Origin: Candidatus Daviesbacteria bacterium
GTDB lineage: Bacteria; Patescibacteriota; Microgenomatia; Daviesbacterales; UBA10151
Direction: 5' to 3'
Length of the DNA: 64,000 nucleotides
Assembly: GCA_016176335.1 (NCBI GenBank)
Contig: JACOXI010000003.1
Coordinates: forward strand, 6,920 to 70,919
A program made the translations under genes and the position numbers. The notes under the pieces were generated by a model. That model was not told the origin of the DNA. It was given only the letters and a program-made list of their open reading frames with translations, and searched no databases. Positions 3,897-58,830 of the stretch are shown here, in pieces (within the stretch, counting starts at the first letter, position 1; every line of letters starts with the position of its first letter).

Positions 3897-3899
3897 GAT

Positions 3900-4145: not shown

Positions 4146-4148
4146 GAT

Positions 4149-6705: not shown

Positions 6706-6739
6706 AGAGTCATCAGCTATCAGACGTCAGTCGTCAGAC

Positions 6740-15773: not shown

Positions 15774-16094
15774 ATGAATAGTAGTCCTGTACAAATTTGG
15801 AGAAAACATAAAAATTTACATAATTACCTGGGTAAAACAGGTAGGCTTTTGGTTTGGACTAAGATCTTTGTGGCCCCAACCGGTTTTGAGCACCAAACCC
15901 CCTATATTGTAGGCATTGTACAATTTGAAGACCCTTCGACAAGTTCAGGGCAAGTTAGATTGCCTGCGCAAGTTGTAGATTGTCCTGAAGAATCCCTAAA
16001 AGTAAACCAAAAGGTACAAGTAGTGATCCGAAAAATAGGTAAAGCAAAAGCTGAAGATGTTATTGAATATGGAATAAAGGTAAAACCTTTATGA
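15774..16094 (+). CDS. DUF35 OB-fold/Zn-ribbon protein (partner of archaeal thiolase/HMGCS complex)
   Basis: It is a small protein immediately downstream of the thiolase. That is the conserved archaeal arrangement. Confidence 0.65.
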   Translation: MNSSPVQIWRKHKNLHNYLGKTGRLLVWTKIFVAPTGFEHQTPYIVGIVQFEDPSTSSGQVRLPAQVVDCPEESLKVNQKVQVVIRKIGKAKAEDVIEYGIKVKPL

Positions 16095-16996: not shown

Positions 16997-17499
16997 AATA
17001 ACGAGTTTGGCTGGGTTAAGCATCTGTCCACTGCAAAACCAATCTGCTGCAATAATATCCTGGCTCCCTCCCCATTCGCCACAATTGCCTCTTGTCCAAA
17101 CTCCGCTCGAGCGGGCTGGGGATAAACAACAGAATAACCCCGGCTTTTACCCTGCTGCCCTCCCAAATAGTCCACATCCTTCCAGATTTTGAATCTCCTA
17201 CCTCCTAATATTTCTACTCTAGTGAGGTTAGCCTCAACCGAATTCCCTAACTCATCCCATTTGACCAACAGGCGGCTGATTAAAACAGTACCATGCTCAT
17301 CCTTACTATCTGTTCCCATCACAATCCCCAGATTAATTATTTCTGTTTCTGACTCGCTTGCTGTCTGCAGTCGCATCCCGAGTCTGGTAGCCGGCACCCC
17401 TTTGTCTTGATCTTCCTTACGAAGGTCCATAGCCTGAGCATCGTGTACGACTCTTTCAATGCGAGCGCGAATATTTTCTGCCTGCTCTCGTAGCGGCAC
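16939..17499 (-). CDS. Hypothetical protein encoded antisense within the mevalonate operon (GC-rich insert; possibly frameshifted with 17337..17579)
   Basis: The 186-aa ORF has no recognisable motifs. Its composition is distinct from the flanking sequence. An overlapping 80-aa ORF could be its displaced N-terminus. Confidence 0.3.
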   Translation of the reverse strand: MPLREQAENIRARIERVVHDAQAMDLRKEDQDKGVPATRLGMRLQTASESETEIINLGIVMGTDSKDEHGTVLISRLLVKWDELGNSVEANLTRVEILGGRRFKIWKDVDYLGGQQGKSRGYSVVYPQPARAEFGQEAIVANGEGARILLQQIGFAVDRCLTQPNSLFYRQRSKPFSPSAMERVGR

Positions 17500-26610: not shown

Positions 26611-26759
26611 AAGTAAAGATAGCGAAGTCACAAGCAGTCAAAAAATGTTGTGCAGTTGAGCATACCACTTTATTCATGACCGATTCCATTCCATGGCGCG
26701 AAACGAACACAAGCGAGCGACCTGGTCGCGCGAGCGCTTTTTTGCGCTGTGACGAGCTA
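26611..26759 (+). repeat. ~145-bp dispersed repeat element, copy 2 (fills the PRTase/IMPase intergenic region)
   Basis: It aligns end-to-end with copies at 13234..13383 and 57806..57960. Its 'tgacgagctag' end supplies the PRTase stop codon. Confidence 0.8.
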
Positions 26760-27398
26760 GCTTGTCAATAATTGTACCACCTCTTCATCTGATACAGGCT
26801 CAAATTTGTGATAAAACTGGCCAACTGCCTGGAAATACTCAGGTGTTTCCAAAACCACTACCTCCCCGAACTCTCCTAACTCCCTGATGATTTTCTCTAC
26901 TGGTTCTTTACTTGCCACAGGTATGGCCAAGATTATTTTTTTAGCTTCATGCCTTTTTAAATACCTGACAGCAGAAAGTGTTGTTGCACCTGTGGCAATC
27001 CCATCATCAACAAGGATTACAGTTTTACCTCCGACATTAAGAGGTTTTTTTTCTCGCCTATATAAATCCTCTCTCCTTGTTATCTCTTCTACCTCATTTT
27101 TCACTGTTTCCTTCAAATCATAAATCGTTGATCCTAAATCATCAATCAAATTCTGATCCCACACCACCTCACCATCCGGATCTACTGCTCCCAAAGCCAA
27201 TTCAGGCTGGGTCAGGGCACCTATTTTTCTGGTCACAATAATATCCAAGGGTAAGTTTAATGATTCTGCTACTGCGGATGCCACCACCACTCCTCCTCTG
27301 GGAATACCAAGTACCAGGACATTATCTTTACCTTTGTAGTGTTTAAGATGTTTTGCGAGCAATTTCCCGGCTGATTGTCTATCTTTAAAAATCTTCAT
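26757..27398 (-). CDS. Phosphoribosyltransferase (type I PRTase fold)
   Basis: 'VILVDDGIATGATTLSAV' is the PRPP-binding motif. Confidence 0.7.
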   Translation of the reverse strand: MKIFKDRQSAGKLLAKHLKHYKGKDNVLVLGIPRGGVVVASAVAESLNLPLDIIVTRKIGALTQPELALGAVDPDGEVVWDQNLIDDLGSTIYDLKETVKNEVEEITRREDLYRREKKPLNVGGKTVILVDDGIATGATTLSAVRYLKRHEAKKIILAIPVASKEPVEKIIRELGEFGEVVVLETPEYFQAVGQFYHKFEPVSDEEVVQLLTS

Positions 27399-27474: not shown

Positions 27475-28845
27475 CTAATCGAACAACCCCAATTGTGGGG
27501 CTTGATCTTCCTTCTTTTCTTCGGCTCCGTCCTCTCTCTCGTTCCATATCTTCACCACCCCATATACTCCATCATAGCCCGGATCAATCACCAAATCTGC
27601 CTGTCGCACTTTTCCCACTCCTTCTGCAATCTTGGGGCCTGATATTTTGGCTATTTCATCTAAAGATGTTTTGGTCAAAACCTTTATCTCTCCTCCCAGA
27701 TTAGTCACTAACTTTTTATACTCTAAAATCACCTTTTGGGTTGTTGGAGCAGTATGAAAACTTTCAGCAATAATTTGTATTAAAGGCACCAGCATTCTAT
27801 ATCCCGGCCTAGTTGGAAAAGTTTTGCTTTTTATTACTCCTCCTTCATTGTCCATTGTCAATTGTCCATTGTTTCGCGAAGCGAGAACTTCCACCCTCTC
27901 CATTACCCCCACAGTCAAACCTCTACCGCATTTAGGGCAGATCGTACCTTTGGTCTTGGTCTCTTCCGGAGTATACTTTATATTACAATTTCTATGCCCT
28001 GTGTAATGATACTTTCCTTCTTCAGGATAAAATTCTATAGTTCCTGCAATTTTTTGCTCTTTTATTGTCATAAATAACCCTGAATAACCCTCACTTATCT
28101 CCCCATCAAATACTGTTGCTTCTCTGCCTAAATTTGGTAAGGAGTGGGCATCTGAAAAAGAGATAATTGATCTGTTGTCAAGCTCTTTTATCCTCCAGTT
28201 CATGGCCGGGTCAGAACTTAATCCTGTTTCTATTCCATAAATATACTGTGTTAGATCCTCAAAACATTCTTTCAGAGAATCATAGCCTGACTCGGAACCA
28301 AAAATTCCAAACCAAGGAGTCCAAGCATGAGCCGGAATAAAAAGAGCTTTTTCCGATGCCTGCAAGGCCAAAGACAGTAAGTCTTTTGAAGGTATTCCCA
28401 CAATAGGCCTGCCATCAGAACCTAAAGTTGCTCTTCTTGATAAAAGCTCCTTTTGAAATCTCTCCGCGGAAACAAAATCAGGCATAAAAACCAGATTATG
28501 TACTCTTCTTCCCCTACCTTTCTGGGAATACATTGAAGCAATTTCCACAGTTAAAACAAATCTTACCCCCCGCCTTTGGCGAGGCTCGCTCGCCTCGTGG
28601 CGAAGCAACGGGCCTTCGGCAGCTTCACCTTTTCCGCTTTCCCCTTTCATACTTAAAAATCCAGACCCATCCTCTGTCAAATCTTTTTTAAGCTCCGCAA
28701 ACCAAAGTGGGTGCAAAAAATCCCCTGTACCCAAAACATCAATGCCTTTATACTTTGCCCATTCAACCAAATTTGGAACATTTAATTGGGGGGAGCAGGC
28801 CCGGGAGTATTTGGAGTGAATATGCAAATCAGCCACATATGCCAT
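27475..28845 (-). CDS. PHP-domain nuclease, endonuclease Q (EndoQ)-like; carries two in-frame repeat inserts
   Basis: The N-terminus has the PHP motif 'VADLHIHSKYSRA'. A Zn-finger 'CPKCGRG' follows. This architecture matches archaeal EndoQ. The inserts are 'KGESGKGEAAEGPLLRHEASEPRQRRG' and 'ASRNNGQLTMDNEGG'. Confidence 0.55.
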   Translation of the reverse strand: MAYVADLHIHSKYSRACSPQLNVPNLVEWAKYKGIDVLGTGDFLHPLWFAELKKDLTEDGSGFLSMKGESGKGEAAEGPLLRHEASEPRQRRGVRFVLTVEIASMYSQKGRGRRVHNLVFMPDFVSAERFQKELLSRRATLGSDGRPIVGIPSKDLLSLALQASEKALFIPAHAWTPWFGIFGSESGYDSLKECFEDLTQYIYGIETGLSSDPAMNWRIKELDNRSIISFSDAHSLPNLGREATVFDGEISEGYSGLFMTIKEQKIAGTIEFYPEEGKYHYTGHRNCNIKYTPEETKTKGTICPKCGRGLTVGVMERVEVLASRNNGQLTMDNEGGVIKSKTFPTRPGYRMLVPLIQIIAESFHTAPTTQKVILEYKKLVTNLGGEIKVLTKTSLDEIAKISGPKIAEGVGKVRQADLVIDPGYDGVYGVVKIWNEREDGAEEKKEDQAPQLGLFD

Positions 28846-29424: not shown

Positions 29425-31158
29425 CTACTTTCTAAACTGCAGTTTGTACATTTCCATCAGCTCTTTCAGGGTGGTGGCATCTTCGGCCTTCTTGTCTGCT
29501 TCCCTAAATTTGACCAATCTGGGAAAACGCAGGGCCAGACCGGCCGTATGAAGCGGGCTTTTAGTGATCTCATCTGCCAGAACCTCAATCACAATCTTTG
29601 GTTCCACCCACACACTGGGAGTAATCAATGACCTTACTCTGGCTGGTTTACTTTTAACCTTCAACTTCTCACCTTTAACTTTTATCTCTCTCCACTCTTC
29701 ATCTGTCAACCCTGTCCCAATTTTGGAAACTGTTACAAACTCATCTTTGTCCTGATCATAAACTCCCACGAGGAGCGCTCCTGCTCCAAAAGCAGATCTT
29801 TTACCTTTACCAAAAATATATCCTAAAATCACACAATCTATGGTATCTTTTAACTCTCCGTCAGAGTGTCTTTTTAACTTGACCCAGTTAAAATTCCTGG
29901 CCCCTGCCTCATACTTGGAAGTAGGCCTTTTGACAATTAACCCTTCCAAACCCTTAGTCAGTGCGTCATCAAAAAGCTCCTGTATCCTTTCCACTGAATC
30001 TGTGATCTCTCCTGGCTGCGGAATTAAAACTTCGTGTCCCTTAATTCTTGATTCTAACTGCTTGATTCTTACTTTAAGAGGCAAATCCATTAAAGATTGG
30101 TCATCCAAATACATCACATCAAATACAAATGCCTTAAGCGGTAATTTTACAGCCATCTCCTCTATTCCGTACTTACGACGCCTTTTGGTGGTTTCCTGAA
30201 AAGGTAAAAACTCTTCAGACTGCGGATTAAAAGCCAAAGCTTCTGAATCTAAAATTGCAGTTTTTGCCGATACCTGAGATAAAACTCCTTTAATAATATC
30301 CGGAAACATAGGAGTTGTTTCTTCTAAATTTCTGGAAAAAAGTCTGACCTTGCTACCGTCTTTATGAATTTGTACCCTGAACCCATCGAATTTTTGTTGG
30401 ACATGGGCTTTCCCTCCATATTTTTCCAAAATGGTTTTGGCATCAGGTAATCTTTCTGCAAGTTGTGATCTAATTGGCCTTCCCACAGTTACATCCAAAC
30501 CTTGAACTCCCCGAAGTCCCTGACTCCACAAAACCTCCCCAATCAAACCTAAATCAGACACTTTATTATATGCACCTTCCAAAAGCTTTCTTTTACTTTT
30601 ATCACCCAATTTAGACTTGGCAAAAGCATCCATAATAGTGGGATCACCAATTCCTAACCTTGAGGTTCCCAAAGGGATTCGTACCAGGTGTTTGGCAGAA
30701 ACTCCATCCACTTTATTCAAAAGACTAGAAAGAGCTGTAACCTTCTTTTCAACAGCCCCTTCCCCTGTGGTTTTGGCAATTTCTGTTAAAGTTTTAAAGA
30801 CTTCTGCAACTGACAGAGATCCTTCGACTCTCCCTCGACTAGCTCGGGATCGCTCAGGATGGCTCGCAAATTTGCTCGCCACTATCCCCAAATCCCCTAA
30901 CCTCCCATACTCTTTCAGTACTTGCTCACGTTCTACCCCATAAGCCCGGGCCATTGCTTGAGCAACTAATTTTTCGCTCATCCCAATCTCAATTGGTTCA
31001 TAAAAAGGGGCCACCCGTCCTTGCAGTAAATAAACAACCTCCGCTATTTCACGAGACTTTACTTCATCAAAAAGCTTGGACATGATATCAATAAGCGTAA
31101 GGCGGGAAGAGGTTGATTCTAAATTTTCAAAATACTGCGCCAGTTTACCAAATGTCAT
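29425..31158 (-). CDS. lig: ATP-dependent DNA ligase (archaeal/eukaryotic LigI-like)
   Basis: 'KFDGFRVQIH' is the KxDG adenylation motif I. The length and OB/ligase domains fit. It carries an in-frame insert 'ASHPERSRASRGRVEGS'. Confidence 0.9.
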   Translation of the reverse strand: MTFGKLAQYFENLESTSSRLTLIDIMSKLFDEVKSREIAEVVYLLQGRVAPFYEPIEIGMSEKLVAQAMARAYGVEREQVLKEYGRLGDLGIVASKFASHPERSRASRGRVEGSLSVAEVFKTLTEIAKTTGEGAVEKKVTALSSLLNKVDGVSAKHLVRIPLGTSRLGIGDPTIMDAFAKSKLGDKSKRKLLEGAYNKVSDLGLIGEVLWSQGLRGVQGLDVTVGRPIRSQLAERLPDAKTILEKYGGKAHVQQKFDGFRVQIHKDGSKVRLFSRNLEETTPMFPDIIKGVLSQVSAKTAILDSEALAFNPQSEEFLPFQETTKRRRKYGIEEMAVKLPLKAFVFDVMYLDDQSLMDLPLKVRIKQLESRIKGHEVLIPQPGEITDSVERIQELFDDALTKGLEGLIVKRPTSKYEAGARNFNWVKLKRHSDGELKDTIDCVILGYIFGKGKRSAFGAGALLVGVYDQDKDEFVTVSKIGTGLTDEEWREIKVKGEKLKVKSKPARVRSLITPSVWVEPKIVIEVLADEITKSPLHTAGLALRFPRLVKFREADKKAEDATTLKELMEMYKLQFRK

Positions 31159-33403: not shown

Positions 33404-33485
33404 GATTATAGCTATCAGTCTTCAGCTATCAGCTTTCAGACTGTACCTAAAAATGTCTGACGACTGACGACTGAAAGCCGACGAC
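33404..33485 (+). repeat. Palindromic 'CAGCTATCAG...GTCTGACGACTGACGACTGA' element (copy A)
   Basis: It matches copies at 42343..42422 and 56706..56785. Confidence 0.7.
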
Positions 33486-33521
33486 TACTTCAATTTTCGC
33501 ATATTTCCCGCAAAATTCCAA

Positions 33522-36500
33522 CTAAGGAATGACATATTCATCCCAACTTTTGATCTGTAAATCTGCTATTTTTTTGGAAGACAAACTTGATACTAATAAT
33601 TCTGCAGCTTGAAGATTGGTGATAAGCGGAATTCCCAAATCAATACAATGCCTTCTTATCACAAATCCATCCGTTTCTCCTTTGGAAGATCCTCCCACGG
33701 AGATATTGATGGCAAGATCAATATGACCTGCTTTCAGTAAGTCCAAAACCGACGGATGTTTTTTCTCTGAAATTTTGTAAACTCTTATACTACTTATTCT
33801 ATGCTGTTTTAAAAACTGATGTGTGTGTTCTGTGGCATAAATTTTAAATCCTAAACCGAAGAGCAGTTTGGCAGATTCCAGAAAATCCAGCTTATTTTTC
33901 TCTCCCCCAAGTCCCAAAAATACACTTTTCTTTGGCATTTTAAAGCCGGTTGCCAGCAGTGCTTTAAGATAGCCTTCCTCTAAGTCATCACCAAAACAGG
34001 CCACCTCACCGGTTGAGGACATCTCTACTCTTAACCTGGGATCTGCTCCTTTTATTCTGTTAAAAGAAAATTGAGGAGCCTTAACTGCTACATAATCCAA
34101 ATCTATAGTTTTAAAATCTCCCTGAATGTCCTCTCCAAGCATGACTTTTGTTGCCATCTCCACCAAGTTGTAACCGGTAACTTTGGAGACAAACGGGAAG
34201 GACCTCGAGGCTCTTAAATTAAGCTCGATCACTTTAATCTCATTATCTTTGGCTATAAATTGAATGTTGAACGGACCACAAATCTTAAGTTCTCTTAGAA
34301 TCTTTTTTGTAGCCTCTTTGATCTGTCTGACAGTTTCAAGGTAGAGTTTTTGCGGAGGCAAAACCAGCGTTGCATCACCGGAGTGAACCCCGGCATTTTC
34401 AACATGCTCTGATATGGCATAAATTAAAAGATTCCCGTTTACTCCTACTCCGTCAATTTCAATCTCTTTGGCGCCCTCCACAAATTTGGAGATAACAACA
34501 GGATGCTCACTTAAAATATCCGCTGCCTGTTTTAGATATTTTTTAAGCTCAGAAGAAGAGTAAGCAACATTCATGGCAGAGCCTGACAAAACATATGAGG
34601 GTCTGATCAAAACAGGGTAGCCAATTTTTCTTGCAAACTCTAGAGCATCACCCAAACTTTTAAGACTCATCCAGGCAGGTTGTTCAATGTTTAACTTATC
34701 CAAAATTTTGGAGAATTTATGCCTATCTTCTGCTCTGTCTATAGAAATAGGTGAGGTGCCGATAATTTTGTAGCCTGCTTTGTAACATTTTAAAGCTAGG
34801 TTGTTTGGAACTTGTCCACCAAAGCCCAAAACTAAACTGCCTTTTTCAATATCATAAATATCGGACACTCTCTCGAAAGTTAATTCTTCAAAGTATAATT
34901 TATCGGCCAAATCATAATCTGTGGAAACAGTTTCCGGGTTACAATTTATGATGATTGTTTCCAAACCTCTCTGCCTTAAGGTTTGTGCAGCGGTAACGCA
35001 GCACCAATCAAACTCCACTGACGAACCAATACTGTATGGTCCGGAACCTAAAACAATCGCTTGGTCCTTGAGTAGCTTAGGTGACTTAAGTGACTTAATA
35101 TTTGCCTCTGACTCTTCACCATGATAGGTCAAATATAAATAATTGGTCTTTGCCGGAAATTCTGCTGCCAAAGTATCTATGTGCTTGACCTTTGGGATAA
35201 TGCCATGTTTTTTTCTAAATTTCCTGACCTGTTCTTCTGTTGTGTTAAAAGCTTTTGCAATCACTCTATCTGAAAAACCCAGCTTCTTTGCTTTTGCAAT
35301 CGTCTGATTGCTCGCCTCGCTGAAGCTCTGGCGAAGCGGGCTGAAAGCTGAAGGCTGAAGGCTATCTTCAAACTCCGCCATCTCTTTAATTTGATGCAAA
35401 AACCAGGGATCAATGCCTGTTTCCTGATAAATTTTCTCGACACCCTCTCCTTTTGAAAACTCTTTGGCAATTGAGAAAAGTCTTTGTGATGTGGGAAGGA
35501 GTGTGCTACTATCAACTCCGTTTGATAAGCCGTCTTGCCCTATCTCCAGCATTCTAATAGCTTTTTGCAAGGCCTCCGGAAAAGACCTGCCTATTGCCAT
35601 GACCTCCCCCACACTTTTCATCTCCGATCCGATAGCCTCATACGCCCCCACAAATTTTTGTAAATCCCATCTGGGAATTTTAACCACAATATAATCCAAA
35701 GCAGGCTCAAAAAAAGCAGAAGTTGATAGGGTGATCCTGTTTTTTAAGTTGGGTAAGTTGTAACCCAAAGCTATTTTGGCAGCGATATATGCTAAAGGGT
35801 AACCAGTTGCTTTTGAGGCTAAAGCCGATGAGCGGGATAGCCTGGCATTAACTTCAATTACCCGGTAATCATTATTTCGGGGATTTAGGGCAAATTGAAT
35901 ATTACACTCCCCCAAGATCCCCAAATGCTCAATAACCTGCAAAGACAGTCTTCTTAAGAAGTGGTACTGATAATTGTTTAAGGTTTGTGATGGTGCAACA
36001 ACTATACTTTCACCGGTGTGAACCCCCATTGGATCCAAGTTCTCCATATTACAAACAGTAATCTTGTTTCCATTGTTATCTCGGACAACCTCATATTCAA
36101 TCTCTTTCCAGTGTTTTAAATACTCTTCAACAGTAATTTGGGGGACATGTTTTAAGGTGATTGACACCATTTTTACTAAATCTTCCTTATTACTCACCAC
36201 CCCTGATCCCAAACCTCCCAAGGAAAAACCTGATCTGACAAGAAGGGGGAACCCCAAATTTTCAGCAATTTCTTCTGCTTCTTTGACGGTTTTTGCAAAT
36301 CCACCTTTTGGAACTTTAACAGCAATTTTTGAAAGTGCTTTTGCAAACAATTCCCTATCTTCGGTTACTTCAATACTTCTAATCGGTGTTCCTAAAACTT
36401 TTACACCGTATTTTTTAAATATATCTTTTTTATCTAAAGCAAGGCCGCAATTTAAAGCAGTCTGTCCCCCGAATGAAAGGAAAATTCCATCAGGTTTTTC

Positions 36501-36725: not shown

Positions 36726-37781
36726 TTACTTAAGACACTTAATAAATTCATCAAATAAATAACCACCGTCAAATGGACCCGGGTTTGCCTCCGGGTGAAA
36801 TTGAACGGCCATAAATGGCTTTGTTTGATGTTTAATTCCCTCATTTGTCCCATCATTGAGATTGATAAACCATTCACTCCAATCCCGACCTAAACTTTTC
36901 ATATCCACTGCAAAACCATGATTTTGAGCGGTTTGTATAGCAATTTTCCTAGTTTGATCTAGTACAGGCTGATTTTGACCCCTGTGACCATATTTTAACT
37001 TATAGGTGTTTCCGCCGGCTGCCAAAGATAAGATCTGGCTACCCAAACAGATACCAAAGATGGGAATGTTCTTTTTGAGGATTTTTCTGACATTTCCAAC
37101 AGTTTCTTTTGCCTGTTTTGGATCCCCGGGCCCATTTGAAATAAAAACTCCATCGAATTCTATTCCGGAGGTGATTGGATTAAAATCCCAGGGAACTTTT
37201 GTCACCTTAACTCCCCTTTTAACCAAGCTTCTGACAATATTTTCCTTAACCCCGCAATCAATCAGCACAATATTCTTTCTGCCGTCTCCATAAACTTCCA
37301 CTTTATCGCAACTGACGTATGGAAGCATGTTCTCTGAATTCGGATCATAGATGCTTAATTCTTTATTCTTGCTGCTTGATTCTAATTCTATTCTCCCCAA
37401 CATCACCCCGTGCTCTCTTAATTTTGCAGTTAAAGCTCTGGTATCAATCCCCTGCAAGGCCGGAATTTTCTCCTGCTTGAGCCACTCCCCCAAAGTTTTT
37501 TTCGACTCAAAATGAGAAGGATTTTCTATATAATTTTGCACAATCAATCCTTTAACCTGAATTTTTTTTGATTCCCAAAATTGCCTTTTTGGTACTCCGT
37601 AATTACCCTGCAGCGGATAAGTTAAACTTAAAATCTGTCCAAAATATGAAGGATCTGTCAAAGATTCCGGGTATCCTACCATACCGGTATTAAAAACCAC
37701 CTCTCCTGAGGTGGTAACCTCTGATCCAAAACTTTGCCCTAAAAAAACTGTCCCATCGGACAGAGCCAGTCTTCCCTGCAT
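36726..37781 (-). CDS. carA: Carbamoyl-phosphate synthase small subunit (glutamine amidotransferase)
   Basis: It has a CPSase small N-domain and a GATase with a Cys-His ('GICLGSQIL', 'HPE'). Confidence 0.9.
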   Translation of the reverse strand: MQGRLALSDGTVFLGQSFGSEVTTSGEVVFNTGMVGYPESLTDPSYFGQILSLTYPLQGNYGVPKRQFWESKKIQVKGLIVQNYIENPSHFESKKTLGEWLKQEKIPALQGIDTRALTAKLREHGVMLGRIELESSSKNKELSIYDPNSENMLPYVSCDKVEVYGDGRKNIVLIDCGVKENIVRSLVKRGVKVTKVPWDFNPITSGIEFDGVFISNGPGDPKQAKETVGNVRKILKKNIPIFGICLGSQILSLAAGGNTYKLKYGHRGQNQPVLDQTRKIAIQTAQNHGFAVDMKSLGRDWSEWFINLNDGTNEGIKHQTKPFMAVQFHPEANPGPFDGGYLFDEFIKCLK

Positions 37782-42288: not shown

Positions 42289-42346
42289 TAAAAAAGCCCT
42301 TGCAAGTTCCCAAAGATTAACTTTAGAAACTTACAAGGGCCTTATT
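42289..42346 (-). terminator. Terminator/attenuator-like hairpin immediately upstream of argH RBS (minus strand)
   Basis: On the minus strand 'aaggcccuuguaaguu' pairs with 'aacuugcaagggcuu' and is followed by 'uuuuuuaa'. It lies between the leader region and the argH SD. Confidence 0.45.
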
Positions 42347-42422
42347 TCAGCTTTCAGACTTCAGCTATCAGCTTTCAGACTTTTGTAATTGTCTGATGAC
42401 TGACGCCTGACGACTGATGACT
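42343..42422 (+). repeat. Palindromic CAGCTATCAG/GACTGA element (copy B) in the argH leader
   Basis: The sequence is 'cagctttcagacttcagctatcagctttcagactt...gtctgatgactgacgcctgacgactgatgact'. Confidence 0.7.
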
Positions 42423-42457
42423 AATCAAGACGGTGCCACCTTGCTTAAATTTTGCTA

Positions 42458-44054: not shown

Positions 44055-44098
44055 GCATGAGTTACTGTCTATTAAGCTTCATTCATAATTCTTACAGC

Positions 44099-45475
44099 TT
44101 AATTCTTGCCCTCCCAGTGTCCCAGTCCCAAAAACTCCCTGACATGTAACGGCAAGGATTTTTTGGAAAAAAACAGGCTGGGCTTCAGACCAAATAACCC
44201 AATCAATAAAATTGCCCCACCCAGTCCGATAAAGATTGGTGTTGTTCCAAAGATATCTGCCAAAACCCCTGAAATAAGTACAGGTATTAAAGATAATCCA
44301 GACATAACCGCCCCTAATACAGAAAAGACCTTACCTCTATCTGTTTCAGAGGTATTTTCCTGTAAGACTGTTTGAGATGGAACTAATATAGAGACCATGG
44401 CCATACCCATCAAAAATGATCCAACCACCAGTATTTTAGATAAAGGCGGCTGATAGAAAAAGGGCAGGGGTCTAGGATGCGGTAGATAGGCAATAGCAGG
44501 TGAAATAATTGGGGCAATTCCCACCAGGAAAAATAATAATCCGGCAAAAATAATTGCTCGGGAAACCAATTTCCTTTTGATCAATTTATTACCAAATCTG
44601 CCTAACATGATTCCCCCTGCAATAATTCCTAATCCCAGCGGAATGATTAAAACATAAGATGCGTCTGTGGCTTTAATTTGTAGAGATTTTTCCAAAAAAG
44701 AGGGCACCAGCACAGCCAAAGTTCCAATTACCATCTGCACTCCTGCCAAAATCATAATTGATGTAAGAACCGACAACTTCCCTCTAATCAACTTGATAGT
44801 CTCAAAAATCTCAAACAGACCAATTTCTTTGATATCAGCATATTTCCTCTTTCTTAATGCCACAATCAATCTCTCTCCCTGCTCATCAGCTTTTGTCACA
44901 ATAGATGGAAAAGCAAGAGCTAATAAAAAGGCGCCAAAAAGTAGCACCCCACCAAGTCCAAAAACAAAGTTTATTCCCAAATGATTAATTAAGGGACCTG
45001 CCAAACCAAAGCCTAAAAGAAAGCAGGAATAAAGGGTGGCAGAAAAAAGAGAGTTGGCAGTGATTAATTGATTTCTTCTGACAACCAAAGGAATTGCTGA
45101 AGCCTCGGCTGGGCCATAAAATTGGCCTAAGGCATTAACAAAAAAGGCAACCATAAGGATTGCCGGAAAACTGCCTTTGAAAAATATTAAGCTGAAAAAA
45201 GACAAACTCAAGAAAAGATCTATCATCATAATGATCTTTTTTCTGTCAATTAAATCTACCAATACTCCTGAAAAAAGTCCTAAGATTACTGCCGGCAGAT
45301 ATATGGCAAAAAGAAGAGCTGAAACTGCTAAGGACGAGTCAGTTAACTTAAAAACCCAAATAATTAAAGCAAAATTGAGGGCGTTATAGGAAAGCTGAAC
45401 TAAAATTTGATTTATCCAAAGGTTTAAAAATCCCCTGTTTTGTAAAACATGGGTGATAGATGTCTTCTCAACCAT
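44099..45475 (-). CDS. MFS transporter
   Basis: It has 12-14 predicted TM helices and an MFS-like loop 'GRFGNKL'. Confidence 0.8.
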   Translation of the reverse strand: MVEKTSITHVLQNRGFLNLWINQILVQLSYNALNFALIIWVFKLTDSSLAVSALLFAIYLPAVILGLFSGVLVDLIDRKKIIMMIDLFLSLSFFSLIFFKGSFPAILMVAFFVNALGQFYGPAEASAIPLVVRRNQLITANSLFSATLYSCFLLGFGLAGPLINHLGINFVFGLGGVLLFGAFLLALAFPSIVTKADEQGERLIVALRKRKYADIKEIGLFEIFETIKLIRGKLSVLTSIMILAGVQMVIGTLAVLVPSFLEKSLQIKATDASYVLIIPLGLGIIAGGIMLGRFGNKLIKRKLVSRAIIFAGLLFFLVGIAPIISPAIAYLPHPRPLPFFYQPPLSKILVVGSFLMGMAMVSILVPSQTVLQENTSETDRGKVFSVLGAVMSGLSLIPVLISGVLADIFGTTPIFIGLGGAILLIGLFGLKPSLFFSKKSLPLHVREFLGLGHWEGKN

Positions 45476-48827: not shown

Positions 48828-49847
48828 TCAGGAGAGTTTGCCTTGGCGGGCAAGAGAGACTTTTTTTGTAACTTCCAGGAAAGCTTTTTGGGCAGCAGGA
48901 ACATTTTTCTCTTTCCCAGCTCGCCTCGCTCCGCGGGCGGAGCGGGCCCAAATTTCCAAAGCCTCGCCTTGTAAGGCTCTGGCAAAAGAGAAAGATAATT
49001 GCCATGGCCCGCCTATGTTATTTATTGCCTGCAGATTATCTGTTGCCATATCAGCAGACTGACCTCCGGATAAAAATACCACTCCCGGAAGCTCTTTTGG
49101 CACTGATTCCAAAAGCGCATCAACTGTTGCCTTTGCCACCTCATCTGCTGTTGCCTGTTTGGGGTTGTCCTCACCGGCTGTGGCCATATTGGTTTTCAAC
49201 AGCAATCCTTCCAAGGCTACTTTATGAACATTAATCCTTTCAAAAACAGCCTTCAGAGTTTGAGCTGTAACTTGTGCGCACTTTTCCAAAGTGTGAGAAC
49301 CGCCTCTTATTACTTCCGGCTCAATAATTGGTACCAGTCCTGCATTTTGAGTGATGGCTGCATAACGGGCTAAAACCTCTGCATTTGCCTCCAAACAAGT
49401 CTGTGTTGGGATTTCCTCCCCTATGGTTATCACGGCTCTCCATTTGGCAAACTTGGCACCCATTTGGGCATATTCTTCCAACCTTCCTCGCAATCCATCC
49501 AATCCCTCGGTAATTTTTTCTGCCGGAAAATTAGCAAAATCTACCACTCCTTTATCCACTTTTATTCCAGGGATAATTCCTTTATTTTCCAGATATTTTG
49601 GCACAGATACTCCCTCAATCTCCTGTCTGATTGTTTCATCATAGAGGATTACTCCTGATAGAAATTGTTCCACCCCGGGAGTAGTAAAAAGCATGCTTCT
49701 GTAAGCTAAATTGGTTTGGGGGGTTGAGGTTAAGCCAATCTTATCAAACCTTTTTTGGATGGTTTTGGATGACTCATCAGCTGCCAGAATACCTTTGGTT
49801 GGATTAAGTAAAGCAGAAACTGTTTGTTTTAATTGGTTAATATCCAT
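48828..49847 (-). CDS. fba: Fructose-bisphosphate aldolase, class I; C-terminal in-frame GC-rich insert
   Basis: 'GILAADESSKTIQKRFDKIGL' is the class I FBA N-terminus. The insert is 'ARSARGARRAGKEKN'. Confidence 0.8.
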   Translation of the reverse strand: MDINQLKQTVSALLNPTKGILAADESSKTIQKRFDKIGLTSTPQTNLAYRSMLFTTPGVEQFLSGVILYDETIRQEIEGVSVPKYLENKGIIPGIKVDKGVVDFANFPAEKITEGLDGLRGRLEEYAQMGAKFAKWRAVITIGEEIPTQTCLEANAEVLARYAAITQNAGLVPIIEPEVIRGGSHTLEKCAQVTAQTLKAVFERINVHKVALEGLLLKTNMATAGEDNPKQATADEVAKATVDALLESVPKELPGVVFLSGGQSADMATDNLQAINNIGGPWQLSFSFARALQGEALEIWARSARGARRAGKEKNVPAAQKAFLEVTKKVSLARQGKLS

Positions 49848-50935
49848 TAATGATGTAATCGCTTTTCTATCTTTACACCACTCTGATCTACAGTCAAGGT
49901 AGTAACTTCATGCCCCCCTATAGTCCTGAGCGAAGTCGTACTTCGATTCCACTCAGTACGACCTCTTCGAGCCTGAGCGGCCTCAGAGCCGAAGGCCTGA
50001 GTATTAATCGAATGGGTCGAAGGATTTACCCTTACCCCTTTTAAATCAAACCATTTATCGTGAGTTATGGCAGAAATTGACACCAAACAATCTTCTACTT
50101 TTCCGGAAACCACATCACAAACATCCCAAATTTTTGTATATCTTTTGGCAATCCGGCTATCGCCGGACCAACCTCTTGTTTCACAAGCAGCTCCCAGTGC
50201 TTTTGCGGCAACAACTGCCATCACTCCTTCCTCAAATCCTCCAATACCCATGAGAATATGGATGCCTTTTTGATGGTTTTTGGGGGCCATGCACGATAAA
50301 ATTGAGGGCATAAAATCTCCGGCCTTAATTAAAATCAAATTCACTCCAAACTTTTGGCAACCATTTATATAGTGAGCATTTCTGTCCCTATCCATCGCCA
50401 CCACATTAATCTGGTGAGGCTCCACCTTAAATGTGTCCGCCACCTTTGCCAGATTTTCTTCCACGCTTTTGTTAAGAGAAATTTTCCCTTTGAGTTGAGG
50501 CGGGCCAAAAAGTTTGTCCATATAATCAATATCTGAAGGTGTTCCCATCAGGCCATTTTCTGACCCAACTGCAATCACAGAAACAGCTCCCGCAGAATTA
50601 AGTTTGGCAGCTTTTGAACCCTCAACAACATCATTTACGCAGTCTAGTTTTAAATCCCCCTTACCAAACACCCCTTCCAAAGTAGGCAATTTTTCTCCGT
50701 ATTGGTGGATATGTTTCCTTCCCTCACTGCCTACCACCCTTAAAACAAATTGTACATCCACCAAAGCTGTATACATGGCATCTGCACCTGCTTGATCAAT
50801 TAACCTTTCTCTTTTGATAGATTCCTCTTCAGTTAAAAGATCATCTTTGGAAAATCCTTGTTCATAAATAAGTTTGGAAACTGAAATTGCAGTTAATTCT
50901 GTGGCACGGGTGATGTATTTTTTAACCTGATCCAT
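49847..50935 (-). CDS. glpX: Fructose-1,6-bisphosphatase class II (GlpX-type); carries a ~120-bp in-frame insert
   Basis: It is GlpX-like ('GIGGFEEGVMAVVAAKALG'). The insert 'STHSINTQAFGSEAAQARRGRTEWNRSTTSLRTIGG' lies at 49915-50035. Confidence 0.7.
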   Translation of the reverse strand: MDQVKKYITRATELTAISVSKLIYEQGFSKDDLLTEEESIKRERLIDQAGADAMYTALVDVQFVLRVVGSEGRKHIHQYGEKLPTLEGVFGKGDLKLDCVNDVVEGSKAAKLNSAGAVSVIAVGSENGLMGTPSDIDYMDKLFGPPQLKGKISLNKSVEENLAKVADTFKVEPHQINVVAMDRDRNAHYINGCQKFGVNLILIKAGDFMPSILSCMAPKNHQKGIHILMGIGGFEEGVMAVVAAKALGAACETRGWSGDSRIAKRYTKIWDVCDVVSGKVEDCLVSISAITHDKWFDLKGVRVNPSTHSINTQAFGSEAAQARRGRTEWNRSTTSLRTIGGHEVTTLTVDQSGVKIEKRLHH

Positions 50936-52236: not shown

Positions 52237-53466
52237 TTATATCAAATTTGATATATTAGTCAAGTGGAGGATTTTCTTTTTAAATCTCTCTTTAGAAAAA
52301 TTTTGGGCATTTTTTCGCAAAGTTTCTGGATCAAACTGGCTTGGATCAAATTTTTGTAGAGCATCTACTAAAGCATCCACAGTTACCATCCCTGGCCCAC
52401 CATATAAAATACCAGTTGCCACTCGTCCTGAGCTCTTCGAGTCTGAGCCTGAGGGTTCATCCCTCAGAGTCGAATGACCTGTCGAAGGATCAATAACTGT
52501 TTCCAAAAAACCACCCGAAGCAGGAGCAATCACCGGAGTACCGGCAGCTTGAGCCTCAATTGAGGTGATGCCAAAATCCTCATCCTCTGCTGCCACAATT
52601 AGAGCCTTGGCATTTTGCAACAGCTTAACTCTTTCTTCATCACTCACCCATCCTAAGAAGGTGGTAGTTGGTAGGCCTTCAGCTCTGAGGCTCAGGCTCG
52701 AAGAGTTGTAGGTTGTAGCAAGCTTTTTAAGATTTTCCATCTCCGGGCCACTGCCTGCCACTTTTAATGGTAATCGCAATCTTCCACATGCTTCCACTAC
52801 CACATCTACTCCTTTCCCTCTTACTAATCTGCTTAATACTAAAAAGTAATCTTTTTCCCCTTTATACTTTATACTTGATACTTGATACTCTTTCAGATTC
52901 ACTGGCGGATAAATCACCACTGAGTCTCTTCTGTAGAACTTCTTGATCCTTGCCTGGACATTTTTGGAATTGGCCACCAAAATATCAGGGCGTTGCGAAA
53001 CTTCATAATCATAAATCCTCATAAAATGGTTAATTATCTCTCCTCCGATCCTAGTCCACCAATGCTTTTTATAGTTAAAAGAAGTCACATAGCCATATAA
53101 AAATCTGGGTGGGGTATGGATATAGCTGATATGTAAAGTTTCAGGTTTGGTAATGACCGCTTTGGCAAGATGGGTGGCTGATGAGGAAGAGATAACCACC
53201 TCATACTGTGATAAATCAAAGCTTTCAAACATCAACGGCCCAAAAATTCTAAAAGGAGAAAGAAGCTGATCAGCAAACGGGAATTTTTGAAACCAAGAAG
53301 GTCTAATATCCCAATCTTTGAATCTTTTCCCATTCTCCCCCATGGCAGAAAGATTCACATAAGCAGTATAGACAGGAGCATTGGGAAAAATTTCATGCAA
53401 GGCTTCCAGTACTCTCTCAGCACCCCCATATTCCTTCAAATAATCATGAGCTAAAGCAACTTTCAC
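52237..53466 (-). CDS. Glycosyltransferase family 4; carries two inverted copies of a GC-rich in-frame insert
   Basis: It has a GT4 fold ('EDFGITSIEAQAAGTPVIA'). The inserts 'DEPSGSDSKSSGRVATG' and 'SSSLSLRAEGLP' come from 'ctcttcgag.ctgagcctgag' motifs at 52425-52495 and 52672-52722. Confidence 0.8.
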   Translation of the reverse strand: MKVALAHDYLKEYGGAERVLEALHEIFPNAPVYTAYVNLSAMGENGKRFKDWDIRPSWFQKFPFADQLLSPFRIFGPLMFESFDLSQYEVVISSSSATHLAKAVITKPETLHISYIHTPPRFLYGYVTSFNYKKHWWTRIGGEIINHFMRIYDYEVSQRPDILVANSKNVQARIKKFYRRDSVVIYPPVNLKEYQVSSIKYKGEKDYFLVLSRLVRGKGVDVVVEACGRLRLPLKVAGSGPEMENLKKLATTYNSSSLSLRAEGLPTTTFLGWVSDEERVKLLQNAKALIVAAEDEDFGITSIEAQAAGTPVIAPASGGFLETVIDPSTGHSTLRDEPSGSDSKSSGRVATGILYGGPGMVTVDALVDALQKFDPSQFDPETLRKNAQNFSKERFKKKILHLTNISNLI

Positions 53467-56532: not shown

Positions 56533-58830
56533 TCATAACACTAATAACTTCATCTCTCCCCAATTGGGGCCTACTTTTAGATCCACCACTACTGGTACAG
56601 ATAATTTTAGGGCATTTTCCATTTTATCTTTGACCATTTGGGCAATTTCTTTAACGCTCTTGGGGTCACACTCAAACAACAATTCATCATGAACCTGGAG
56701 GATGAGTCGGCAGCTATCAGATCGTTCGCTGCGCTCACTGTCAGCTTTCAGACTGTCTGACGACTGATGACTGATGACTGATAACTCCTTATCAATTTCC
56801 ACCATGGCCTTTTTGATCATATCTGCTGCTGTTCCTTGAACCGGATGATTGATGGCTGCTCTCTCACCAGCTGCTTTGATGGCGTGATTTGAGGCTGTAA
56901 GTTCAGGGATATATCTTTTCCTGCCCCAAAGAGTTTCAACATACCCCCTTTCATATCCAAAGGCTAAAGTCTTTTGCATCCACTGGGAAACTTTGGGGAA
57001 TTGTGCAAAATATTCCGCAATATATGTTCGCGCCACCTCATATTCCACCCCTAACTGACGGGACAAGGCATGGGGGCCCTGACCATATAACGTTGCAAAG
57101 TTCATGGTTTTACCTACATTTCTTTGCTGTTTTGTAATTTTATCAATTGGCATTTTGAAAATTTTACTGGCAGTTGCTACATGAATGTCTAATCCTTCTC
57201 TGAAGGACTTTCTTAATCCCGGATCATCTGCCAAATGAGCCATAATCCTAAGCTCGATTTGTGAATAATCAGCTGCCAAAAGTACCTTGCCTTTGGGAGC
57301 AATGAAGGCGCGTCTTATTTCTCCACCCTCCTCACCTTTAATTGGGATATTTTGCATGTTTGGGTTTTGAGAAGACAGCCTGCCTGTGGCAGCTCCTTCC
57401 ACATTAAAAGTGGAGTGAATCCTGCCATCTAATCCTACAGATTTAGGCAAGGCATCTATGTAGGTTGATACCAGTTTGAAAAGCTGGCGATACTCTAAAA
57501 GTAATGGCACTACAGGATGAGCTGCTACCAACTCATGAAGGGTGGCCTCATCTGTTGATCTACCAGTTTTGGTCTTTCTCACCACTGGTAATTTAAGTTC
57601 GTCAAACAGAATCTGCGACAGTTGCTTTGGGCTGTTCGGATTAAACTCATGTCCTATTTTTGAGTAAATTTCTTTTTCTAATTTAATTAATCTACCTTTT
57701 AAGGCTTTCCCAAGTCTCTCTAAAAACCTTAAATCTATTAGTACACCAGTTTTGGACATCCTTTCTAAAACTGGCTGTACAGCTAAATCCAAATCCGTGG
57801 TATTTATGGAGTTAGCGAAGTCAGAGGTAGCCAAAAAATGTGGCGCAGTTGAGCGCACATCCTTATCCATGCTTGAATTACCTACTTGGCGCGAAACAAG
57901 TCCCAAGCGAGCGACCTGGTCGCGCGAGCGGTTTTTTGCATCCTGACGAGCTACTCCCACACCTGGAATCCTACCAATCAAACTTTTAAACTCCAATTCT
58001 TCAAACAATTTAACTACTTTTTCTTTATCAAAATCATGAACCTCACACTTCTTCAAATCTAACTTAATTGGGGCTTTGCCATCTAAGGTGGCTAGTTTTT
58101 TACTCATTACAGCATCTTCTGCACCTTCTGCCAACAGCTTTTGCATTCTTTGCGGTAAAGTTTTTAAATTCTTGGGACGGTAAATTTCTTCAATCGTGCC
58201 AAACTGGTGTATTAATTTTGTCGCAGATACATCCCCTATTCCAGAAACTCCCGGGATATTATCCGATGCATCTCCTGCCAGCGCCTTATAATCAACCAAA
58301 AGTTTGGGTGCAAATCCATATCTTGCCACAAACTCTTCCTCCCCATACAGCCCCACATCCGCAAGGGTTTTTTTAGGCATAAAAACTTTCACTTTTCCAT
58401 TAATCAGCTGCATGATATCCCGATCACCTGTCACAATAATAATTTCTAATTTCAAATTTTTAATTTTTAATGCTTGGCTTGCCAGTGTGGCAATCAGATC
58501 ATCTGCCTCATAACCTGATAAGCTAAATTGCGGCATGTTAAATGCCCTGATGACCTCATGCACTCTGTGATATTGATTACCCAATGCCTGATCCAGCTCA
58601 CGTCTTGTGGCTTTATATTGAGTATAAGCTTGATGTCTAAATGTCGGCCCCCTTTCATCCCAGGCAACGGCCAGAAATGTAGGTTTAAGCTCATTTAAAA
58701 CCTTCAGCATCATTGAGGAAAATCCATATACAGCATTGACCAGTTCTCCTTGGGAAGTAGTAAAAGGAGGAGTAGCATGATAAGCCCGATGCAGCAAAGC
58801 ATTACCATCAACTAAAACCAGTCGTTTCAT
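56533..58830 (-). CDS. polA: DNA polymerase I (5'-3' exonuclease + polymerase domains; no evident 3'-5' exonuclease domain); carries two in-frame repeat inserts
   Basis: The N-terminal 5' nuclease is 'MKRLVLVDGNALLHRAYHA'. The Pol A motifs 'DYSQIELRI' and 'QVHDELLFE' are present. Inserts lie at 57806-57960 (the 145-bp element) and 56706-56785. Confidence 0.9.
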   Translation of the reverse strand: MKRLVLVDGNALLHRAYHATPPFTTSQGELVNAVYGFSSMMLKVLNELKPTFLAVAWDERGPTFRHQAYTQYKATRRELDQALGNQYHRVHEVIRAFNMPQFSLSGYEADDLIATLASQALKIKNLKLEIIIVTGDRDIMQLINGKVKVFMPKKTLADVGLYGEEEFVARYGFAPKLLVDYKALAGDASDNIPGVSGIGDVSATKLIHQFGTIEEIYRPKNLKTLPQRMQKLLAEGAEDAVMSKKLATLDGKAPIKLDLKKCEVHDFDKEKVVKLFEELEFKSLIGRIPGVGVARQDAKNRSRDQVARLGLVSRQVGNSSMDKDVRSTAPHFLATSDFANSINTTDLDLAVQPVLERMSKTGVLIDLRFLERLGKALKGRLIKLEKEIYSKIGHEFNPNSPKQLSQILFDELKLPVVRKTKTGRSTDEATLHELVAAHPVVPLLLEYRQLFKLVSTYIDALPKSVGLDGRIHSTFNVEGAATGRLSSQNPNMQNIPIKGEEGGEIRRAFIAPKGKVLLAADYSQIELRIMAHLADDPGLRKSFREGLDIHVATASKIFKMPIDKITKQQRNVGKTMNFATLYGQGPHALSRQLGVEYEVARTYIAEYFAQFPKVSQWMQKTLAFGYERGYVETLWGRKRYIPELTASNHAIKAAGERAAINHPVQGTAADMIKKAMVEIDKELSVISHQSSDSLKADSERSERSDSCRLILQVHDELLFECDPKSVKEIAQMVKDKMENALKLSVPVVVDLKVGPNWGEMKLLVL
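56706..56785 (+). repeat. Palindromic CAGCTATCAG/GACTGA element (copy C) in-frame inside polA
   Basis: The sequence is 'cagctatcag...ctgtcagctttcagactgtctgacgactgatgactgatgactga'. It encodes 'SVISHQSSDSLKADSERSERSDS'. Confidence 0.7.
57806..57960 (+). repeat. ~145-bp dispersed repeat element, copy 3, in-frame inside polA (antisense to the gene)
   Basis: It aligns over its full length with the 13234..13383 and 26611..26759 copies. It is translated as 'ARQDAKNRSRDQVARLGLVSRQVGNSSMDKDVRSTAPHFLATSDFANSINT'. Confidence 0.8.

Follow-up and report, generated by a model that had tools for sequence, protein, structure and literature searches.

Nested hairpin-forming DNA elements lie in-frame within genes of a Candidatus Daviesbacteria genome and recur across bacterial phyla

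In a 64-kb stretch of DNA from Candidatus Daviesbacteria (Microgenomates, candidate phyla radiation, CPR; GC ~39%), hereafter the window, glpX, a GT4 glycosyltransferase gene and an ATP-dependent DNA ligase gene carry GC-rich palindromic DNA in-frame. We find that this DNA is built from two small units: an outer one, E1, which is a hairpin CCTGAGC-N2/3-GTCGAAGG with flanking stems, 21–24 nt long, and an inner one, E2, a 30-nt near-palindrome TCTTCGAGCCTGAGCCTCAGAGCCGAAGGC. The original prediction had ascribed the inserts to one shared family; the three unrelated genes do hold common DNA, which resolves, however, into two separable modules nested together. The family is not specific to this genome and is spread across many bacterial phyla. 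The inserts are probably non-autonomous, hairpin-seeking and hairpin-forming insertion elements, which persist in surface loops of proteins where they are in-frame and free of stop codons. This reading builds on features that we observe directly, namely the dispersal of the units, a 30-nt difference between filled and empty sites, the targeting of hairpins, absence from orthologues, the use of several reading frames and the intactness of the host genes.

The copies in the window, with their parts and host open reading frames (ORFs), are:
49847–50935, minus strand: ORF of glpX.
49919–50026, minus strand: glpX insert of 108 nt/36 residues (residues 304–339, NPSTHSINTQAFGSEAAQARRGRTEWNRSTTSLRTI, NPSTHS...SLRTI), between GVRV and GGHEV.
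49922–49931, plus strand: 5' half of the outer E1 of glpX, AGTCCTGAGC.
50016–50026: 3' half of the outer E1 of glpX, GTCGAAGGATT.
49935–49962, plus strand: nested hairpin in glpX, GTCGTAC-TTCGATTCCACTCA-GTACGAC, holding an inverted E1-like unit CTTCGA-N5-CTCAG.
49964–49996, plus strand: 33-nt variant of E2 in glpX, TCTTCGAGCCTGAGC-GGC-CTCAGAGCCGAAGGC.
49996–50015, plus strand: inner E1-like unit in glpX, CCTGAG-TATTAA-TCGAATGG, with E2 at the foot of its 5' stem.
52237–53466, minus strand: ORF of the GT4 glycosyltransferase.
52425–52490, plus strand: GT4 copy 1, an E1 hairpin GTCCTGAGC ... CTGTCGAAGGAT around a 45-nt E2-type element at 52434–52478.
52675–52704, minus strand: GT4 copy 2, a solitary 30-nt E2, TCTTCGAGCCTGAGCCTCAGAGCTGAAGGC, in phase 0, with the peptide SSSLSLRAEG.
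29425–31158, minus strand: ORF of the ATP-dependent DNA ligase.
30818–30860, minus strand: ligase copy, an inverted E1 ATCCTGAGC ... GTCGAAGGATC, encoding (S)HPERSRASRGRVEGS.
30832–30848: second, degenerate E1 in the loop of the ligase E1, CCCGAGCTAGTCGAGGG.
15774–16094: ORF of an OB-fold protein (ChsH2_C/DUF35-type), host of the fifth copy, with the in-frame peptide PSTSSGQ.
15933–15949, minus strand: fifth, minimal E1 copy, CCTGAACTTGTCGAAGG, with one mismatch.

All strings named in the original prediction were recovered at, or a few bases from, the positions that it gave, and its description holds for the 36-residue glpX insert, the opposite orientation of the two GT4 copies, the inverted ligase copy and the short palindromes of glpX (GTCGTAC/GTACGAC, and CTGAG/CTCAG too). 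The fifth copy, which that prediction did not include, emerged from a relaxed search; all five copies of the family in the window are intragenic. The words GTCGAAGGAT and CTCTTCGAGYCTGAGC each occur three times in the window, against 0.03 and 0.01 expected, and none of 100 shuffles reaches either count. By itself TCCTGAGC, with four occurrences against 1.6 expected in the window, is not significant, and a window-wide regular expression for CTGAG..TCGA units gives five matches against 0.9 expected; within the window the family is small. The glpX insert is GC-rich, as had been claimed (0.52 compared with 0.41 for the remainder of the gene), and GC across the inserts is 52–60% compared with 41–42% in the host genes. 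Because Pfam domains match on both flanks of the glpX, GT4 and ligase inserts, we regard these three ORFs as intact.

The glpX insert consists of an outer E1 hairpin with three units nested inside it. Folded as single-stranded DNA, it reaches −22.3 kcal/mol (z = −3.9); folding of the shorter copies is not significant (z from +1.0 to −2.1), and nearest-neighbour energy models may give no credit to sheared G.A pairs or mini-loops. Its parts recur elsewhere: the outer E1 termini are shared with glpX orthologues at loci L001, L003 and L365, composites related to the GTCGTAC hairpin are found at L257, L342 and L351, the identical GGC variant of E2 lies in metagenome loci L295, L350 and L285, and the order 'E2 then CCTGAG..TCGAAGG' is repeated in more than 15 metagenome loci.

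Comparison with 120 Microgenomates homologues of GlpX, 64–75% identical across the BLAST alignment, shows a short loop between GV(K/R) and GGHEV in 115 of them. Extra loop sequence is present in five proteins, that of the window and P0014, P0022, P0078 and P0104. At this site P0022 has a minimal 24-nt E1 hairpin (AGTCC-TTCGAC-TGC-GCTCA-GGACT), and P0104, P0014 and the window gene share the ends ...ATCCTTCG...GCTCAGGAC... with increasing material between them, a size series at one site. The nearest relatives of every carrier are without the insert in a neighbour-joining tree, which is star-like. Placement of the insert follows from orthologue and Pfam alignment: alignments to solved PDB GlpX structures end before it, and an AlphaFold model, built on an alignment of 18 sequences, was of too low quality (mean pLDDT 42) to locate it.

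Both GT4 inserts are missing from two syntenic orthologues that are 79–85% identical, with a gap opposite copy 2 of 10 residues in L001 and 14 in L004. The gene order GT4, glpX, aldolase is kept in two syntenic loci, in one of which a small toxin-antitoxin pair lies between GT4 and glpX. In copy 1, GAGC and CTGTCGAAGG of an E1 border the 45-nt E2-type element on its two sides, and the composite as a whole inserts 20 residues, PSTGHSTLRDEPSGSDSKSS(GR); the 45-nt element occupies the equal position in an E1 loop at L248, L263, L277, L278, L316 and L358. Copy 2 is the 30-nt E2 unit save one base.

A comparison of 115 ligase orthologues shows that the N-terminal-domain loop holding the insert is hypervariable. 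Some orthologues have a short loop (LSAKGKVQSAKLSV, for example), some a reduced version of the element (HPERAKRVEGS), and others different hairpin-derived sequences (RHAELVSAS...FGMTV and RHSGK...SGQARMTV). The ligases closest to that of the window (79–81% identical) have a short loop instead of the insert, and other carriers of HPER..VEGS are only 71–72% identical and are placed elsewhere in the neighbour-joining tree. The absence from other orthologues that had been predicted is thus seen for glpX, for both syntenic GT4 genes and for the closest ligases. Among the orthologues compared, other versions of the element at these positions were seen in some other Daviesbacteria, four for glpX and many for the ligase, and not in distant lineages. 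We take the glpX and ligase loop positions to be hot spots, not sites filled in this genome alone.

The same DNA is read differently from gene to gene, as PST..SLRT or HPER..VEGS, and as SSSLSLRAEG or AFGSEAAQARRG; this use of different frames and orientations rules out a protein-level module.

As a separate observation on the ligase gene, an AT-rich repeat, CTTAATTCTTGATTCTAACTGCTTGATTCTTAC, occurs at 30040–30076, inside the ligase (KVRIKQLESRIKG), and again at 5945–5981, 16622–16671, 37354–37390 and 44077–44113, inside other ORFs and at one gene boundary; the second variable site of the ligase alignment is directly beside it.

We scanned one genome per GTDB species for E1 with the pattern GTCCTGAGC-N(0-30)-GTCGAAGGAT and obtained at least 120 loci. 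Among the matches listed, at least eight phyla are represented, with Chloroflexota, Proteobacteria, Bacteroidota, Acidobacteriota, Planctomycetota, Verrucomicrobia, Elusimicrobia and several CPR groups; the Bacteroidota include cultured Flavobacterium, Pedobacter and Leeuwenhoekiella. The spacer in these matches is 2 nt long in 75 (mostly YT) and 3 nt in 34 (mostly G-N-A), with about one match at each other length, and a looser scan of viral contigs shows the same peak. Because spacer length peaks this sharply in both the genome and the viral scans, E1 is a real motif. Most copies of the elements in other phyla lie outside long ORFs.

The bases that flank TGAGC...GTCGAA covary (CC/GG, GG/CC, GC/GC, CAC/GTG). 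In 36 copies not selected on E1, flank positions 1–3 are paired in 83%, 94% and 72% of cases, compared with 68%, 62% and 48% in shuffles, and longer versions of E1 have an additional perfectly paired stem-loop between GAGCG and AGTCGAA. The conserved core is C-TGAGC-(YT or GNA)-GTCGAA-G, which presumably could stack as T-A, G.A, A.G, G-C, a bulged T, and C-G closing the YT/GNA mini-loop, and this on one strand only.

For E2, a metagenome scan with CTTCGAGYCTGAGC-N(0-30)-CTCAGAGYYGAAKG gave at least 120 loci (L245–L364), on contigs with a GC content of 0.33–0.69. CT precedes the pattern in 109 of 111 copies and C follows it in 92 of 111, and since these junction bases are near-invariant we define the unit as the 30-nt sequence given above. 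The 5' junction reads C^T, only the C being conserved before the cut point (YC^T). Lengths including the junction bases, among the matches listed, are 30 nt in 81 copies (those without a spacer), 33 nt in 7, 42 nt in 6, 45 nt in 14+3, 60 nt in 5 and other values in 5. Multiples of three make up 116 of the 121 E2-family copies, which represent only about nine sequence classes, though many of the copies lie in intergenic hairpins of high-GC genomes; it is a suggestive pattern without explanation.

Two contigs, L348 and L356, each hold a common host hairpin both empty and filled. The empty form is CCCTCTCC-CGGAGTACCG-GGAGAGGG, that is, CCCTCTCCCGGAGTACCGGGAGAGGG, and in the filled form CCCTCTCC is followed by the complete unit TCTTCGAGCCTGAGCCTCAGAGCCGAAGGC and then by CGGAGTACCGGGAGAGGG. 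The difference between the two is exactly 30 nt, with no target duplication and at most a 1-nt (C) ambiguity, and for lack of a target duplication E2 is not a classical MITE (miniature inverted-repeat transposable element). The host of L348 is Planctomycetota (Phycisphaerae)-like, going by the named relatives of an adjacent M28 peptidase, and E2 is therefore common to very distant bacteria.

Deleting E2 in silico from 106 distinct copies, with the 50-nt flanks rejoined and folded, brings hairpins back, with a mean folding energy of −13.7 kcal/mol, compared with −9.9 kcal/mol for control random 50-mers from the same loci; the energy is lower in 79% of cases (Wilcoxon p = 3.7e-9). Typically the E2 junction coincides with the apex of the hairpin so restored, or else with the foot of an E1 stem on its 5' side, and the window composites (GT4 copy 1 and glpX) are consistent with a hairpin-seeking E2.

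E2 also occurs within genes of metagenome contigs. On those of less than 50% GC, 20 of 62 copies among the matches listed are deep inside long ORFs, by which we mean that both ends of the open frame, itself at least 150 residues long, are at least 25 codons away. A Pfam scan of ten such ORFs showed that each encodes a recognisable protein with domain matches. Nine are enzymes matched on both sides of the insert (DinB, PurL, AlaRS, UvrD helicase, ribulose-phosphate epimerase (Rpe), an M24 peptidase, PurH, the CCA-adding enzyme and a cysteine desulfurase-like class-V aminotransferase); in the tenth, the match is to a type IV secretion pilin domain and is confined to the part upstream of the insert. 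E2 is read as AFGSEAQARR, PSALRLRLEE, SSSLSLRAEG or LFEPEPQSRR, and the 45-nt form as GHSTLRDEPSGSDSK, and such use of four frames of one DNA again leaves no place for a protein-level module. The four frames are those without a stop, and the two that contain TGA are never used, which argues for translation of the inserts and not for their removal. Every coding copy examined has a length that is a multiple of three and is stop-free in the frame of its host.

Single CPR-like proteins at L299 and L276 have several different hairpin-derived segments in a row; these contigs encode an M24 peptidase with HLFEPEPQSRRPESLARGDSGQALRQAQGSEFSRTARMTSGQ and a PurH with at least three separate inserts. Hairpin-derived insertion may be very dense in some genomes.

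We propose that E1 and E2 would be small non-coding dispersed DNA elements that are copied into genes. E2 would enter after a C without duplicating its target, favouring the apex or the 5' stem foot of resident hairpins, E1 included. Because the elements would land preferentially in existing hairpins, repeated insertion into resident copies would yield nested composites, such as the 108-nt insert of glpX, and hypervariable protein loops. In a Daviesbacteria genome nearly without intergenic space, the survivors would be copies in permissive surface loops, with multiple-of-three lengths and in one of the four stop-free frames, and these would be translated as short hydrophilic peptides rich in Ser, Arg, Gly, Glu, Pro and Ala that are probably near-neutral. 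Movement may proceed via single-stranded DNA and a trans-acting, hairpin-specific enzyme. By analogy, the most likely candidate for this enzyme would be a HUH/Y1 transposase of the RAYT or IS200/IS605 kind, an assignment that is doubtful when taken by itself.

Nearest in behaviour among known systems are Rickettsia palindromic elements (RPEs; Ogata/Claverie), which are 100–150 bp long, found in intergenic as well as protein-coding DNA and restricted to Rickettsia, except for one family that is also reported from Anaplasmataceae (PMC1779305), and intragenic repetitive extragenic palindromic (REP) elements; both in-frame RPEs and intragenic REPs have been described (PMC3733652, PMC1779305). Like RPEs, E1 and E2 are palindromic, non-coding and dispersed, lie between genes and also in-frame within housekeeping genes that are unrelated and seem functional, have no counterpart in orthologues elsewhere, are tolerated as additional stretches of peptide, and inhabit small, gene-dense genomes of host-dependent bacteria. 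Such RPE-type behaviour, in-frame in functional genes and absent from orthologues, is not proof of membership. Unlike RPEs, E1 and E2 have units of 21–45 nt, are nested, target hairpins and have cores that are identical across phyla, and the RPE description of size and host sets them apart.

REP/REPIN elements are mobilised by RAYT (Y1, IS200/IS605-like) transposases (PMC3733652, PMC3479197, PMC3116915). Theirs is the known mechanism that comes closest: REP-associated Y1 transposases act on single-stranded hairpins and cut C^T of a CT dinucleotide beside the hairpin (PMC3479197); the 5' junction of E2 is likewise C^T. Further likenesses to REPs are the imperfect 20–40-nt hairpins with stem mismatches or bulges, dispersed and often clustered, the lack of target duplication and an occasional position inside replication and repair genes. 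As short imperfect palindromes of 20–40 nt in many dispersed copies, E1 (21–24 nt) and E2 (30 nt), with at least 120 loci in each scan, fit the REP description. The GTAG/CGTC tag at the hairpin foot is absent, however, no RAYT gene at the loci compared is flanked by E1 or E2, and known REP families are specific to a species or genus, whereas the cores of E1 and E2 are shared between phyla. We do not file E1 and E2 as REPs, because defining features of REPs, such as the tag, are wanting. The coding fraction of E2, about one third in low-GC hosts, also seems unusually high for REPs.

Among traits of the IS200/IS605 type, E2 shows the lack of target duplication; its conserved junction is just C, shorter than the 4–5-nt targets of that family, and E2 is one hairpin, whereas elements of this type have sub-terminal imperfect hairpins at both ends. 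Terminal inverted repeats of 15–30 bp around a non-coding body of 70–300 bp are not found in E1 or E2. Hairpins are known as landing sites: IS110/IS1111 elements insert into REPs (PMC12288879), and REPs serve as insertion targets of IS elements (PMC3733652). With IS110/IS1111 and with class C group II introns, E2 has in common a pre-existing stem-loop as its landing site, but those elements are autonomous, kilobase-sized and encode their own enzyme, whereas E2, at 30 nt, has to rely on an activity supplied in trans. For class C group II introns, the landing sites are attC sites and positions after terminators. The GC clusters of yeast mitochondria are short GC-rich palindromes in an AT-rich genome, dispersed, sometimes coding and suspected to be mobile; unlike E1 and E2 they belong to a eukaryotic organelle, their sequence is unrelated, and we know of no cross-lineage identity among them. 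Our literature search returned only general REP and RPE papers and none that describes these sequences or the phenomenon in CPR. The elements are seemingly undescribed; they are smaller than RPEs and nested, the in-frame behaviour of palindromes being itself already known.

Several observations weigh against the reading of E1 and E2 as mobile insertion elements. A mobilising enzyme was not found, with a Y1-transposase homologue at only 2 of ~360 loci (L127, weakly L353), and when 3,320 ORFs from 120 E1 loci were clustered all against all, no protein family turned up in more than five loci. The tetranucleotides GTAG, CTAC, CGTC and GACG occur in at most 9% of the 15-nt flanks, about the chance level (105 genome E1, 78 viral E1 and 113 E2 copies). 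E2 is base-identical in Daviesbacteria and in a Planctomycetota-like contig, yet searches of PLSDB plasmids, GenBank phages and IMG/VR gave no match, so that it has no carrier there and the cross-phylum route of a non-autonomous element is unexplained. No presence/absence polymorphism was seen between near-identical strains at a coding site, the filled and empty pairs being intergenic host hairpins. Finally, the glpX and ligase carriers are phylogenetically patchy and would need a site hit more than once, losses that are both frequent and precise, or recombination, among which we do not choose. A single origin of the glpX and ligase inserts was rejected, since by neighbour-joining, with star-like trees, and by identity ranking each carrier has nearest relatives other than the remaining carriers.

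A partner encoded at the loci themselves was likewise given up as an idea, as the ORF clustering at E1 loci had given no recurrent neighbour family. No Y1_Tnp homologue is present in the 64-kb window, the part of the host genome that the analysis covered, and a RAYT gene may lie farther off. When the Y1 transposase of L127 was used as a tblastn query on the window and on all loci, one weak extra match was obtained. At L127 (Candidatus Levybacteria, 3850–4800), a Y1_Tnp (RAYT-like) gene lies between inverted hairpins of its own, CAAGGAGTATCC...GGATACTCCTTG, which are unlike E1 and E2; the distance to a nested E1 composite, which supplies the 5' leader or the first codons of dinB, is ~70 bp. Given that this transposase is flanked by its own, different hairpin, we treat the RAYT link at L127 as a coincidence.

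It is unlikely that E1 and E2 are instead functional single-stranded DNA or RNA hairpins under selection, bound by a conserved host factor, for example in replication, recombination, RNA processing or chromosome organisation, with coding copies tolerated or co-opted. Such a function would agree with base-identical sequence across phyla in hosts of widely differing GC (0.33–0.69), with absence from plasmids and phages, with tandem G.A pairing feasible on one strand only, and with a conserved core and covarying stems, the signature of a selected structure. However, no Rfam family was matched, either at gathering thresholds on the window and 18 loci or at permissive E-values on 8 composite-bearing loci. 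With respect to the host genes the elements stand in either orientation, and four reading frames are in use; they have no recurrent gene neighbourhood and are missing from most orthologues of each host gene; the filled and empty hairpins of one contig, together with nesting, resemble proliferation and not placement. We consider it quite improbable that the inserts were generated locally, by replication slippage or template switching at hairpins, with a shared mutational bias as the cause of their similarity. Stutter-like duplications do occur (for example GTCCTGAGCCTGTCCTGAGCCTGTCGAAGGATCGAAGG in L226, and similar ones in L151 and L173), and insert length at one site varies among orthologues, but a local process would not recreate identical strings of 28–45 nt in unrelated genes, host hairpins and phyla, and E2 has fixed ends and cannot be derived from its own flanks by duplication or inversion.

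The two readings that concern the proteins fare worse. That the inserts are features of the proteins themselves, ancestral or selected, in the form of disordered linkers or surface loops that most lineages have lost, with the DNA likeness secondary, is highly improbable: they do lie in loops of variable length among orthologues and their peptides are hydrophilic, yet one and the same DNA, read in four frames and both orientations, specifies peptides that have nothing in common, conservation is at the nucleotide and not the amino-acid level, carriers are patchy and not mutual nearest relatives, and identical DNA is present in intergenic hairpins. Hardly credible, to us, is removal of the inserts by intron-like excision or translational bypass, so that the proteins would never contain them. 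The strong structure of the glpX copy (z = −3.9) would suit it, as would the insertions that rRNA genes of CPR bacteria carry. Against it, all coding copies examined are multiples of three and stop-free, which is needless for removed segments, the two TGA-containing frames of E2 are never those used, and no ribozyme or intron model matches; the permissive Rfam search gave no match to hammerhead, twister or other ribozyme models, the hammerhead core having been compared by eye only.

Other repeats in the window also enter genes. A 145-nt MITE-like repeat with inverted ends, AGCGAAGTCACAAG..CAAAAAATG ... CGGTTTTTTGC..GTGACGAGCTA, is present at 13231–13376, 26617–26760 and 57810–57954, two copies being intergenic and the third in-frame in polA (ORF 56533–58830, minus strand). 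The polA copy lies in the linker between the 5'-3' exonuclease and polymerase domains ('VARQDAKNRSRDQVARLGLVSRQVGNSSMDK...') and is absent from the L001 orthologue; it fits the terminal-inverted-repeat pattern of 15–30-bp ends around a non-coding body of 70–300 bp. Another family, CAGCTTTCAGACT / TGTCTGACGACTGA / TGTCTGACGACTGATGACTGA, at 56735–56790, 6703–6741, 9568–9635, 33405–33490 and 42344–42426, is mostly at gene boundaries; it is in-frame near the C-terminus of polA (SVISHQSSDSLKAD), where L001 lacks it, and in a polyprenyl synthetase (KSLKADSEATPKAGEA), the peptide SLKADSE being common to polA and the synthetase. The class-I aldolase gene (ORF 48828–49847, minus strand) has a 27-nt GC-rich hairpin insert at 48918–48944, with the core GCTCCGC-CC-GCGGAGC and the nine residues RSARGARRA, which three syntenic orthologues lack and whose family is distinct from E1 and E2. 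GC-rich islands with GCGAAGC / GCCTCGC words lie inside the ORFs of the polyprenyl synthetase, a 456-residue protein of no known function, CarB and a 186-residue product (9128–9181, 28555–28645, 35300–35358 and 17353–17410), and look like further repeat-derived in-frame segments. With in-frame repeats of other families present, the E1/E2 finding is one instance of a general property of the genome.

The polA gene of a related Daviesbacteria (L001, 3328–6750) contains a LAGLIDADG intein at the conserved PVQG|TAAD site, which the polA of the window is without. GC skew is negative nearly throughout the window (1–64000; cumulative −6.8) and most genes are on the minus strand, consistent with a single replichore in which minus is the leading strand. 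The first 8 kb are GC-richer (45–50%), with a Pro/Thr/Ser-rich repeat at 7629–7739.

It is possible, and we put it forward tentatively, that E2 represents an undescribed class of mobile DNA, among the smallest, in which a 30-nt frame-neutral palindrome seeks hairpin loops from CPR to Planctomycetota-like bacteria and multiple-of-three units colonise essential coding sequence. If so, its spread would depend on a widely conserved hairpin-specific single-strand DNA enzyme or a templated-insertion system, and E2 would act generally as a generator of hypervariable loops in the proteins of CPR bacteria. A 30-nt unit that is identical across phyla and prefers hairpin apices points to a trans-acting enzyme or process, and the filled and empty pairs together with the C^T junction make this question testable. 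The peptides PSTSSG, HPER..VEGS, AFGSEAQARR, PSALRLRLEE and SSSLSLRAEG can serve as markers to flag inserts in protein databases. The idea from Rickettsia that palindromic repeats give rise to new protein segments is thereby extended to a second, very large host-dependent group, with elements three to five times smaller. CPR genomes are tiny and thought to be streamlined, yet essential enzymes carry selfish-looking DNA that we read as translated: glpX, DNA ligase, Pol I and a glycosyltransferase in the window, and AlaRS, PurL, PurH, UvrD and DinB in related metagenome contigs. This offers a concrete mechanism for many unexplained insertions and length differences in alignments of CPR proteins, and bears on their annotation, phylogenomics and structure prediction.

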